Part shown: in pieces, positions 3,375 to 6,425 of the stretch
How the letters are laid out: every line of letters begins with the position of its first letter
Numbering within the stretch: position 1 is the first letter of the stretch
Translations under genes and position numbers: made by a program
Origin: a virus
Taxonomy: Duplodnaviria; Caudoviricetes
Direction: 5' to 3' (one strand)
Virus record (IMG/VR): IMGVR_UViG_3300048080_000322
Coordinates: 1-26,088 of that record
Length of the DNA stretch: 26,088 nt
The notes under the pieces: generated by a model
Databases searched by the model: none
Told to the model about the DNA's origin: nothing
What the model saw: the letters and a program-made list of their open reading frames with translations, nothing else

Positions 3375-4115
3375 GTGGGCTGGCCCAAGGGGAAACCCCA
3401 GTCGGAGACGGCCAAGGCAGAAAAGCGCGTGAAGATGCTGGCGCGCATCGCGGCCGGACTGTGGAACGCGGATTTCTGTCGTACATGCAACAGCCCAGAG
3501 GCGAAAGCCCGTCGGCTGGCGACGAATCGCGCGCGTGGAAACGACACGAAGTGCGCGAAGGCGATGGCGGTTTCCATGGCCAGACCGGACGTGCGGGCGA
3601 AGTTGTCCGTCGAACGAAAGGCGCGCTTCTCGACGCCAGAAGGCCGCCAGAAAATTCTCGCCGTAGCACGCGCGGCGCAGACCCCAGAAGTGAACGAGCG
3701 GCGCCGAGCAGCATCGAAAGCCTACGCCATATCGCCCGAAGGCCGTCTCGCGAAGCAGCGCGGGGGACTTGCGGCGCTACACAGCCTGCGCGGGGCCTCG
3801 GCGCGCAAGGAGTGGGAGTACCAGGAGCACCGCTTTCGTTCGTCTTGGGAGCGAGACTTCGCGCGGTTTCTCGATTTGCTGGGCGTGAAGTGGTGGTATG
3901 AACCGACGGTGTATCAGGTAGGAAGTCGCCACTACGTTCCCGACTTCCGCGTGGAGATCCCAGGGCGTGGATCGGTCATCGTAGAGGTCAAAGGTGTGCG
4001 CCTCGGGCGCGGACTTGAAAAGTTCCAGGACTTCGTGCGAGAGTACCCGGAAGTACCGGCCGTGCTCATCGGTGACGAAGAAATCGCGGCGATACGCAAG
4101 CTGAACAGGAGCTGA
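3375..4115 (+). CDS. Free-standing PD-(D/E)XK endonuclease with N-terminal NUMOD3-like basic repeats (putative homing endonuclease)
   Basis: FRSSWERDFARFLD..GVKWWYEP...YVPDF...VEVKG catalytic motif; repeated (S/T)PE-x-R/K helices; atypical codon use; inserted between scaffold and capsid genes. Confidence 0.8.
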   Translation: MGWPKGKPQSETAKAEKRVKMLARIAAGLWNADFCRTCNSPEAKARRLATNRARGNDTKCAKAMAVSMARPDVRAKLSVERKARFSTPEGRQKILAVARAAQTPEVNERRRAASKAYAISPEGRLAKQRGGLAALHSLRGASARKEWEYQEHRFRSSWERDFARFLDLLGVKWWYEPTVYQVGSRHYVPDFRVEIPGRGSVIVEVKGVRLGRGLEKFQDFVREYPEVPAVLIGDEEIAAIRKLNRS

Positions 4116-4119
4116 AAAA

Positions 4120-5496
4120 ATGGCGAATTTTCCCGACTCGAGTTTGCCGGTCACCTCGTTCAACCCGACGGTGATTTCGGCGATACAGGACAGAACTTTG
4201 AGTCGCACTTTTCGCGACGCCCTCTACCCGCGGCTCCTGTACCGCATGGAGGCGCTCGCGGAGTTGTGGCCGGTGAACCTCGGCGCGAACATGACGTTCA
4301 CGCGCGCGGGGCTCATCGAGCCGACGACGCGCCCCCTGGCGCCCGGGAGCGACCCGCCGCTCAGCACCTACGCGATCGAGCAGTGGGAAGCGACCGCGCA
4401 GCAGTGGTCGGCGGCCGTGGACACCCACATGCCCACGAGCTACGTCACGCTGGCGTCGCAGTACCTGCGCAACATGCACCAGCTCGGGCTGCACAGCGGC
4501 CAGTCGCTCAACCGCGTCTCGCGCGACAAGCTGTTCAACGCCTACGTGGCGGGGAACACCGTCGTCAAGGCGGGCGGTGTCGGCGCGGGCGTGCTGGTCC
4601 CGGTGGTGAACCTGGACGGCTTCACGCGCAAGCTGTTCAACGGCCGGCCGACGCCGGTTTCAGCCGCGAACCCGATCTCCATCACTATCCCGGCCGCTGG
4701 GTACACGGGCGTCGTGACCGGGTTCGTCTCGGACTTCCCGAACGACGAGATCCACGGCGGGACCCTGACGGTCTCCCCGGCGGTGCCCGCGCTGGCGGGC
4801 CGGGAAGCCGTGCTGTCCGCCAACCGCTCGAGGCTCATCTACTCGGGCGCCGGCAACCGCGTGGACGACATCACGGCGGTCGACCAGTTCAAGCTGGCGG
4901 ACGTGCGCGAGGCCGTCGCGCGGCTGCGCTTCGACAACGTGCCGCCGCACGAGGATGGGTCGTACCACTGCCACCTCGACCCGATCTCGGAGTCGCAGAT
5001 CTTCGGCGACAACGAGTTCCAGCGGCTGAACCAGTCCATCCCGGACTACATCCACTACCGGCGCTTCGCCGCGGCGTTCGTGCTCAACACCACGTTCTAC
5101 CGGAACACCGAGGCGCCGACGACGGCGACGGTGAACGAGAACCCGGCCAAGGGGTTCACGACCGGGTTCGAGCTGACCAACCCCGCGGGCGTCGTCATCC
5201 ACCGCCCGATCTTCACGGGACAGGGCGCGCTCGAGGAGAAGTACCTGGACGAGTCTCGGTACATCGCCGAGGCCGGCATCCAGGGCAAGATCGGCGAGTT
5301 CGCGGTGGTGAACGGCGGCGTGCAGGTCATGACCGAACGGATCCGACTCGTCCTGCGCGCGCCGATGGACCGACTCCAGCAGCAGACGAGCGCCGCGTGG
5401 AGCTTCAGCGGCGACTTCACCGTCCCATCGGACGAGGGCTCGCCGAGCGGGCCCGCGACGTTCAAGCGCAGCTCGATCGTGGTTCACGGCGAGTAG
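4120..5496 (+). CDS. Major capsid protein (HK97 fold; resembles N4-gp56-like capsid proteins), 458 aa
   Basis: Size, position after the scaffold, very strong codon bias, capsid-like motifs (GANMTFTR, GQSLNRVSRD, VREAVARLRFDNVPP..GSYHCHLDP); family assignment from recall, not a search. Confidence 0.85.
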   Translation: MANFPDSSLPVTSFNPTVISAIQDRTLSRTFRDALYPRLLYRMEALAELWPVNLGANMTFTRAGLIEPTTRPLAPGSDPPLSTYAIEQWEATAQQWSAAVDTHMPTSYVTLASQYLRNMHQLGLHSGQSLNRVSRDKLFNAYVAGNTVVKAGGVGAGVLVPVVNLDGFTRKLFNGRPTPVSAANPISITIPAAGYTGVVTGFVSDFPNDEIHGGTLTVSPAVPALAGREAVLSANRSRLIYSGAGNRVDDITAVDQFKLADVREAVARLRFDNVPPHEDGSYHCHLDPISESQIFGDNEFQRLNQSIPDYIHYRRFAAAFVLNTTFYRNTEAPTTATVNENPAKGFTTGFELTNPAGVVIHRPIFTGQGALEEKYLDESRYIAEAGIQGKIGEFAVVNGGVQVMTERIRLVLRAPMDRLQQQTSAAWSFSGDFTVPSDEGSPSGPATFKRSSIVVHGE

Positions 5497-5509
5497 CGTC
5501 ATTGACGTT

Positions 5510-5753
5510 CGCCGCACAAGTTCCAGTCCCCTTCGGGGGCTCTGGTCCTGGCTTCGGCCAGGATGGTGTCCCGTCCTTCGGGTCGGGACCTTTTCCCCTC
5601 GACATACGAGACGGCCTTCGGGCCTACCCTCCGCGTCTTGGGGACCGACCGGGAATCTTCAGGCTTCCCTTCCCCGCCGGGTCAGTGCGGTGGTTTGGCT
5701 GACGGCTTCGGCCTGACGCCTTTGCCTGATCCCGTTCACGGTCGGCTTTTTTT
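5510..5753 (+). ncRNA. Candidate highly structured RNA (ncRNA or large cis-regulatory element)
   Basis: Five cUUCGg hairpins (loops 5532-35, 5553-56, 5577-80, 5617-20, 5707-10), nested stems, closing helix 5645-51/5739-45 followed by T7 (5747-53). Confidence 0.65.
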
Positions 5754-5755
5754 CC

Positions 5756-5992
5756 ATGGCGAAACGACGACCCGACGAAGCTCCTGTGCCGGCGGCCCCG
5801 CGGCCTCCGTCGCAGGAGCGCTTCTACCGCGTGACGAAGACGTGCCGGATCGCTCGCGGCGCCACGTACTACACGCTGCCGGTCGGCAAGGTGCTCTCGT
5901 CGCTCGGCTATGACATCGACGAGCTGTGCACGATGGGCGTCACGATGGAGGCGGTAGACAGCCCCGTCATGCGGCCGACCGTGCTGCCCTGA
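5756..5992 (+). CDS. Small hypothetical head-associated protein (78 aa)
   Basis: Codon bias; typical small gene between capsid and connector; no clear SD. Confidence 0.7.
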   Translation: MAKRRPDEAPVPAAPRPPSQERFYRVTKTCRIARGATYYTLPVGKVLSSLGYDIDELCTMGVTMEAVDSPVMRPTVLP

Positions 5993-6011
5993 GTTGGAGT
6001 AGGATAGAGGC

Positions 6012-6425
6012 ATGAGCGCGGTCCTCACCGAGGACGAGAAGGCCAGGATCCGGCATCACCTCGGGTACATCCTGCTTGATCCTGTACCCAGCATCACCCT
6101 CGGTGTGCGCGGTCTCGGCCAGCCGCAGTTCCTGGTCGAACTGGCGCTCAACCAGATCCCTGAGAACGCCGTTGGGATCATCCGCAACTACGTCGCCATC
6201 ATGGACGGCATCGAGAACCAGCTCGTCGAGGCGCAGCGGCGGTTCAAGGCCGAGAAGCTAGGCGAGATCACGCTCCGCAAGGACGAGACCGACCAGCTCG
6301 AGCGCGAGTACGCCAGGTGGGCCAAGCGGCTCGCTGACGACCTCGGCGTGCCCCTGAACATGTTCAGCGAACGGTTCCGCACAAACGGTGGCATGATGCC
6401 CCTGTCCGTCTCCGTGCAGCACTGA
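6012..6425 (+). CDS. Putative head-tail connector/adaptor (137 aa)
   Basis: LTEDEKARIRHHLGY N-terminus, helical composition, synteny after the capsid gene. Confidence 0.65.
   Translation: MSAVLTEDEKARIRHHLGYILLDPVPSITLGVRGLGQPQFLVELALNQIPENAVGIIRNYVAIMDGIENQLVEAQRRFKAEKLGEITLRKDETDQLEREYARWAKRLADDLGVPLNMFSERFRTNGGMMPLSVSVQH

Follow-up and report, generated by a model that had tools for sequence, protein, structure and literature searches.

A pseudoknotted RNA family between the major capsid gene and a small head gene of contractile-tailed phages

Introduction

What does a phage keep in the 259 nucleotides between its major capsid gene and the next gene? The question is raised by positions 1 to 26,088 of IMG/VR virus record IMGVR_UViG_3300048080_000322 (Caudoviricetes; uncultured phage), a stretch of 26,088 nucleotides that was analysed as a whole and is called the window below. 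The window is a 26-kb piece of a phage late operon, with a scaffold-like gene, HNH-type genes, and capsid, neck, sheath and baseplate genes. A sequence-only reading had described the gap behind the capsid gene as the only long one and had placed in it a candidate novel RNA marked by UUCG-capped hairpins. Among the 28 open reading frames (ORFs) picked, this gap is indeed the longest, but gaps of 151-172 nt exist too.

Annotated capsid proteins of Streptomyces phage Kromp, phiKX1 and Raharianne share 29-35% identity with the capsid protein of the window. In these three nearest cultured phages the capsid gene is followed by a gap of ~0-60 nt, and comparison of the gap DNA with cultured phages gave short chance matches only. 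The sole host label comes from a 47%-identical capsid protein within a deltaproteobacterial bin.

For two large structured phage RNAs, GOLLD and ROOL (the latter Rfam family RF03087), functions are still missing, partly since genomic context tells little. We describe herein an RNA family of phages that is real, uncatalogued and supported by covariation, with a core that can be delimited and a constant place in the head module. Comparison of relatives establishes how the RNA folds, from which strand it is read, that it stands at a constant place just before a small head gene, that it occurs once per genome and that its distribution is patchy.

Results

Features of the locus

4120-5496, plus strand: gene for the 458-aa major capsid protein (match to PHROG 1357, major head protein, at E 3e-8)
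5497-5507, plus strand: small hairpin right behind the capsid stop codon, not conserved (sequence inspection and folding)
5510-5517, plus strand: 8-nt stretch that can pair with 5685-5692 and would then compete with the pseudoknot (duplex of -16.2 kcal/mol, present in the minimum free energy fold)
5517-5522, plus strand: weakly conserved single-stranded CAAGUU-type motif just 5' of the first hairpin (post hoc pattern)
5523-5589, plus strand: three variable UUCG-capped 5' hairpins, 5523-45, 5546-63 and 5568-89 (comparison of relatives)
5595-5643, plus strand: domain 1 of the short type, a UUCG hairpin (5613-24) over a 1x3 loop C/UAC, with helix 5608-10/5629-31 and outer helices 5601-03/5635-37 and 5595-98/5640-43 (descriptor and covariation)
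5645-5745, plus strand: domain 2, where helices 5645-51/5739-45 (closing) and 5659-64/5724-29 (inner) frame the pseudoknot and a side hairpin (covariation and fold)
5667-5693, plus strand: H-type pseudoknot, helix 1 5667-69/5679-81, helix 2 5672-77 with 5687-90 and 5692-93 (descriptor and covariation), bulged U5691 and loop UCAGU 5682-86 (fold)
5697-5720, plus strand: side hairpin with UUCG cap and symmetric UGAC/UGAC loop (fold and relatives)
5747-5753, plus strand: U7 run behind the closing helix, predicted to act as a leaky intrinsic terminator and to form the 3' end of the RNA (terminator-like site 5726-5745)
5756-5992, plus strand: small conserved gene, 78 aa with a ~49-aa domain (after the capsid gene in 90 of 104 regions)
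6000-6425, plus strand: next conserved gene (6012-6425), with a TAGGAT promoter-like hexamer 6 nt upstream

Hairpins and folding stability

All five cUUCGg hairpins of the sequence-only reading were located (5528-39, 5546-63, 5568-89, 5607-40 and 5704-13), as were the helices 5645-51/5739-45 and 5659-64/5724-29 that it had proposed to close a 3' domain, and the run of seven T at 5747-53. Of the 15 cUUCGg hairpins on the plus strand of the 26-kb window, five fall within this 259-nt gap. SSCTTCGGSS was counted 14 times in the window versus 3.2 expected, with four of the matches in the gap. Positions 5500-5765 fold with z = -2.57, and 1 of 200 shuffles was equally stable. The helix CGAGACG/CGTCTTG, in which the fourth hairpin was supposed to be nested, is not supported: 45% of cells pair, a level reached by 156 of 500 shuffles, and locally it is weaker than an alternative pairing (-10.6 versus -19.1 kcal/mol).

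Homologous regions

A search with the capsid protein gave 152 loci and, once 8 truncated loci and duplicates were dropped, 104 distinct downstream regions; 12 long-form regions from an IMG/VR motif search were added and used in later analyses. The relatives are contractile-tailed phages, with complete genomes of 80-95 kb. By classes assigned by eye with the aid of descriptors, the 90 loci in which the small gene stands downstream of the capsid gene comprise 25 with a short RNA, 18 with a long form, 5 unclear or degenerate, and 42 without the RNA. The RNA-less loci mostly have a gap of ~60-150 nt with one hairpin.

A conserved two-domain core

As predicted from these comparisons, the RNA is about 240 bases long, and its conserved part is a two-domain core made of a bulged hairpin and a junction with an H-type pseudoknot. 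The feature proposed by the sequence-only reading is real, but that reading missed the best-conserved part, the pseudoknot at 5667-5693. A strict pseudoknot descriptor gave 27 matches among loci with the small gene, 24 of them placed 61-120 nt before the small-gene start, versus a background of 5 in 409 capsid-coding windows. With a looser score of at least 8, the pseudoknot was found in 42 of 53 candidate regions, which is not a blind rate since these regions were picked by eye or motif, versus 6 of 198 background windows.

Because the descriptor itself demands pairing, helix 1 was left out of the search for an independent test. A parse on helix 2 alone succeeded in 25 of 47 regions. In 23 of these 25, helix 1 paired as well; the expectation was 6.6 with shuffled letters and 9.5 with swapped loci (maximum 17 in 2000). 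Among 36 non-redundant parses, CG forms the middle pair of helix 1 in 21, GC in 12, UA in 2 and AU in 1, and each of the four central pairs of helix 2 occurs as 5-6 pair types in 36 sequences. Judged by these counts, both pseudoknot helices covary. The crossing loop starts with UCA, its third base being A in 32 of 36 parses. When the pseudoknot cores were aligned on sequence alone, the result was too uneven for pairs to be counted.

The descriptor for domain 1 matched 16 of 24 short-type regions (background, 1 of 396), and 14 of the matches lie 58-62 nt before the pseudoknot. In a sequence-only alignment, 87.5% of cells pair in 5608-10/5629-31 and 5613-16/5621-24, which none of 500 shuffles reached, with two-sided changes at 7 of 8 pairs. 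In an alignment of 20 sequences fitted to covariance model R1, two-sided changes occur at 14 of 15 consensus pairs, including the closing helix. R1 was built from 12 sequences; it recovered six unseeded short forms at E < 1e-6 and two more weakly, and had no off-site match in 573 kb. Thus, both core domains keep their pairing in relatives by compensating base changes. Outside the window, the UGAC/UGAC loop of the side hairpin was seen only in the nearest relatives, L001-L003.

A variable periphery and a strand preference

The UUCG hairpins, on which the sequence-only reading centred, are all present, but they are mostly variable periphery. The three 5' ones in particular differ among relatives in number and sequence, from none to many. 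By eye, several lineages (L009, L011, L015, L041, L042, L081 and L119) have hairpins capped not only by UUCG but also by five bases, CUCGU or UUCGU. The CAAGUU-type motif was present in 32 of 53 regions versus 694 of 2650 shuffles (26%), a weak signal from a post hoc pattern. That the RNA is read from the plus strand, as had been proposed, is borne out by 118 sense versus 3 antisense occurrences of CTTCGG in 20,713 nt of homologous regions, so the constraint acts on a plus-strand RNA.

The long form

The long form measures 400-640 nt and shares the pseudoknot, while domain 1 and the side hairpin are missing. It carries a 16-nt invariant internal-loop motif with covarying flanks, found in 10 of 18 loci from the capsid search versus none of 25 short forms. 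Because model R1 does not detect the long type, the two types are linked by the pseudoknot descriptor, their position and the closing helix rather than by a sequence score. Taken together, the RNA ranges from ~235 to 640 nt, with peripheral hairpins added around a fixed core, and its minimal core is ~160 nt. In GTDB genomes the long-type motif hit 120 loci, none with capsid, small-gene or next-gene matches; in IMG/VR, the flank-matched loci all lay inside the phages' own family (80 of 118 with full flanks). The long-type loop presumably resembles the second helix of c-di-GMP-I riboswitches. Rfam did not report this riboswitch.

Distribution and history

In a quick capsid tree of 86 rows, the short forms make up one clade (support 99) and the long forms another (support 100), the two being joined at a support of 82 only, under a midpoint root. 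RNA-less rows nest within both RNA-bearing clades, as expected for an accessory RNA, and a third clade of 22 rows is wholly RNA-less. The RNA appears to have been lost several times, and one old origin followed by several losses is the simplest reading. Three RNA-bearing genomes searched with model R1 had a single copy each, while the complete RNA-less genomes G001, G002 and G006 and the partial G007 gave no match. The long motif was likewise absent from four RNA-less genomes, with a positive control. Three short-type patterns detected no member outside the phage family, and among the pattern matches no member of the RNA stood off this site. In the degenerate forms L020, L033, L034 and L037, the closing helices are kept and the pseudoknot is altered, interrupted or missing; in L034 a hairpin is inserted into the crossing loop.

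Neighbouring genes and inserts

The AUG of the small gene lies 2 nt after the U7 run and is not preceded by a Shine-Dalgarno sequence. The small protein had no match in Pfam, PHROGs or PDB and no further sequence match; a weak lead from the Atlas is PF14000 in 26% of a cluster, with a score of 0.83. The gene occupies the place of lambda FI, a packaging chaperone, a likeness that is positional: the comparison of the two proteins by hhalign was not significant (E 0.09).

Inserted ORFs or tRNAs separate the capsid gene from the RNA in L001, L013, L031, L033, L038, L040 and L049, and inserts follow the small gene in L021, L034, L041 and L125. No insert between the RNA and the small gene was seen. 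The pseudoknot lies 61-128 nt upstream of the small-gene start in nearly all homologs. Two tRNA genes stand between the capsid gene and the promoter-like motif of the RNA in L040 (3528-3675). In one subclade, a small alanine-rich ORF family appears to be inserted between the capsid gene and the small gene (by eye; L017, L028, L029, L031, L033 and L049, reversed in L033). The head module of the window contains two endonuclease genes, 865-1482 and 3375-4115, one of them HNH (PF13392) and one between the scaffold-like and capsid genes, and HNH-like ORFs (by eye) are also inserted right behind the capsid gene in L013, L032, L038, L045 and L051. Given these endonuclease genes and HNH-like entries, the site behind the capsid gene is likely an insertion hot spot.

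Transcription signals

No promoter-like site for the RNA was found in the window. A motif TTGAC-n-xAxxxT occurs 5' of 13 of 53 RNA regions (13,287 nt scanned) versus 11 occurrences in 137,597 nt of capsid genes, about twelve times the capsid-gene rate, and in six of these regions AGATG follows at the first hairpin 6-7 nt later. The same motif is found 75-80 nt before the small gene in the RNA-less L017, L028 and L029, so it may serve the small gene. Four of the five plus-strand TAGGAT hexamers of the window (3363, 6000, 12247 and 19631) stand 5-11 nt before the starts at 3375, 6012, 12264 and 19642, which suggests that they are late promoters giving leaderless or nearly leaderless messages. 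A comparable TAGGAT-type spacing was seen before the small gene in several RNA-less relatives. Since one hexamer lies 6 nt before 6012, gene 6012-6425 may be transcribed separately and would then perhaps be independent of read-through from the RNA. At the 3' end, an automatic count of closing helices and U tails was disturbed by flank pairings, and a T-run count was used instead. Of 42 homologs, 30 have a stretch of four or more T behind the pseudoknot, and 15 have one of five or more.

Coding frames and alternative pairings

A capsid fusion and a read-through, frameshift or coding element were considered and rejected: the gap modulo 3 is distributed as 15/14/12, with no fixed frame to the next gene. 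Nor is there a conserved open frame; a frame is open in 25 of 36 sense sequences (16.8 expected) but also in 19 antisense (11.5 expected), and its register is not fixed (12/11/11). Two long off-frame ORFs, 4266-5702 (without family matches) and 5563-5913, overlap the RNA. Since 94% of shuffles have an open frame, off-frame ORFs are expected at this GC content.

The pairing of 5510-17 exists in this phage and is not clearly conserved: when the window was left out, 1146 of 5000 permutations were as good. Among pairings with the 3' strand of the pseudoknot, which the test for a conserved alternative fold covered, cognate upstream pairing was no better than swapped (1514 of 5000), and the signal for a post-stop pairing depends on the window. 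A G-started strand, 5511-17, is complementary to 5685-91 in the window. For such a 5' strand pairing, 45 of 5000 permutations were as good in eight short-type loci including the window, and an unbiased scan showed no excess.

Search for catalogued RNAs

With the covariance models of Rfam 15, no family reached its gathering score in the window, and only chance-level matches appeared up to an E value of 10. In 20 related loci, Rfam gave only two tRNAs, and L131 and L011 had chance-level matches up to E 10. ARAGORN found no tRNA or tmRNA, in agreement with the sequence-only reading, and a search of largely open-access literature found no description of the RNA. Covariation in both core domains, the sense-strand bias of CTTCGG and the absence of an Rfam family uphold the earlier proposal of a novel plus-strand structured RNA.

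Discussion

An accessory RNA that exists as a separate, protein-binding species would account for three traits, namely a large periphery that grows freely while the loops stay invariant, a start signal belonging to the RNA itself and repeated loss. From such sequence comparisons we tentatively favour, at somewhat less than an even chance, a discrete late RNA that the phage can do without and whose closing helix doubles as a leaky end of the capsid message. As no promoter-like site was found in the window, the RNA of this phage would be transcribed at the end of the capsid message. Most transcripts would stop at the closing helix and U7, 2 nt before the AUG of the small gene, and partial read-through would supply that gene. 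A cut near 5517-5522 would release an RNA of ~235 nt, which the UUCG-capped hairpins would shield from nucleases, and where other genes entered behind the capsid gene, a promoter of its own would drive the RNA. The RNA would then bind protein through its invariant loops, the first candidate partner being the small head protein encoded alongside. That a U run of at least five is found in just 15 of 42 homologs counts against a discrete RNA.

As the main rival, the RNA could instead regulate the small head gene in cis, as its leader or attenuator. A protein (the small protein, the capsid or the scaffold) or a small molecule would bind the core and so determine if the closing helix stops transcription or masks the start codon. 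We consider this possible, if rather unlikely. The pseudoknot keeps its distance of 61-128 nt before the same gene in nearly all homologs and is never elsewhere among the pattern matches, and the RNA is never parted from that gene although inserts occur on either side, which favours a role in cis. In the window, the AUG follows the U7 run by 2 nt without a Shine-Dalgarno sequence and an 8-bp competing pairing is available, and RNA-less relatives have a plain hairpin or a short leader at the site. There is also a precedent, T4 gene 32, which is autoregulated through a leader pseudoknot (PMC10690425). However, no conserved alternative fold emerged among pairings with the 3' strand of the pseudoknot, the post-stop signal being window-dependent; the RNA reaches 640 nt, far beyond the needs of autoregulation; and its 3' platform varies from U8 to U4 plus a hairpin to none. 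Improbable in our judgement is a 3' barrier, with a knot that blocks exonucleases and thereby makes the capsid message more stable and fixes the ratio of capsid to downstream proteins. It would agree with the location right after the capsid stop in most loci, with the closing helix and U run, and with a terminator-like hairpin at the site in 16 of 42 RNA-less relatives (by a crude test), but a plain hairpin would suffice for it. Moreover, the RNA is intact although a terminator-like hairpin, genes or tRNAs, or the promoter-like motif intervene (L003, L013, L031, L033, L038, L040 and L041), and this retention behind inserted genes is not explained by a mere stabiliser of the capsid message.

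Two further readings assign the RNA a more specialised activity. The HDV layout consists of a closing helix, a 3-bp helix with a CC loop, a later GG, a side hairpin and a short junction. The RNA recalls HDV-like and theta ribozymes in how its helices are ordered about the 3-bp helix, with CC in the loop of that helix and GG further on, and 5511-17, G-started and 7 nt long, is complementary to 5685-91 in the window; a self-cleaving ribozyme that processes the late transcript is nonetheless extremely unlikely. The last junction, 5721-23, is UUU and unconserved in relatives, where HDV-like ribozymes have a catalytic C at the first position of J4/2 (PMC10879173). A 5' substrate helix is not clearly conserved, and the pseudoknot loop covaries instead with a downstream strand. 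Also highly improbable is a packaging or head-assembly RNA that acts with the small protein on proheads, an analogue of phi29 pRNA in terminase phages. It would suit the invariant loops, the predicted capsid-level abundance and the constant place in the head module, next to a gene located like that of lambda FI, a packaging chaperone that bridges capsid and terminase (PMC13595911). Against it stand the absence of the RNA at the site in 42 of 90 small-gene loci, the failure to find it elsewhere in complete RNA-less genomes, the lack of a significant profile match between the small protein and FI, and an ordinary large terminase in the RNA-bearing genome G014 (491 aa; PHROG 38, E 1.6e-72; the only one of five genomes searched that gave one). 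Most terminal loops are UUCG caps, which are not known to kiss. phi29 pRNA forms rings through complementary interlocking loops; here the only loop pairing found is the local pseudoknot. A search for PF05894, the phi29-type gp16 motor that stands in for a cleaving terminase, was silent, as were its controls. A bolder version, to which we give little credence, is an old class of head-module RNAs of 235-640 nt that form a particle with the FI-like protein and act on proheads or terminase in packaging; if true, phages with a conventional terminase would have their first assembly RNA, and the protein alone would replace the RNA in lineages that lost it.

How does the RNA compare with known RNAs? 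Mu-gpT-DE is named for its place downstream of the Mu-like major head gene. Its model (Rfam RF03012, 53 positions) found nothing over the cut-off in five genomes and nothing at this RNA. With phi29 pRNA (RF00044), the RNA shares a two-domain form, a similar size and a phage origin, this RNA being tied to the head module. According to PMC5066667, however, pRNA is essential and confined to phi29-like motors, whereas the present RNA is missing in 42 of 90 loci and occurs together with an ordinary terminase, so that the analogy drawn by the sequence-only reading is weak. The pRNA model gave no match to it, its control being equally silent.

In the acceptor arm knot of tymovirus tRNA-like structures, a 3-bp helix is crossed by a short pyrimidine-pyrimidine-A loop. 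The pseudoknot described herein is likewise short-looped and H-type, as is that of the T4 gene 32 leader; it differs in sitting inside a junction that long helices close, in its bulged helix 2 and in lacking a free 3' CCA. Structured RNA candidates of viruses were predicted from IMG/VR intergenic regions by Fremin et al. (2023), and the text of that study mentions candidates upstream, not downstream, of a capsid gene (PMC10690425). Motif strings and three sample ids had no match in its searchable supplements, which did not cover the alignments, and the candidate set could include a piece of this family.

By analogy, the RNA resembles ROOL and GOLLD most, as these are described in PMC12286853, yet is not a member of either. 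Like them, it is encoded by phages, multi-helical and pseudoknotted; like GOLLD, it combines a conserved 3' part with a variable 5' part, and like ROOL, which was abundant yet non-essential in one strain, it is apparently dispensable. ROOL and GOLLD reach high abundance and self-assemble into nanocages. They are often near tRNA islands (PMC12286853), whereas this RNA sits in the head module, with tRNAs upstream in 1 of 20 loci scanned (L040) and none in the window. It is also smaller (235-640 nt versus about 660 to over 800 nt) and matched no model in the window or 20 relatives. The family adds a covariation-supported fold new to Rfam, and it offers a ~160-nt core, natural variants of 235-640 nt and a constant location, with the capsid gene on one side and a single small head gene on the other. 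With close relatives that have or lack the RNA, its function thus becomes directly testable by swap and deletion.
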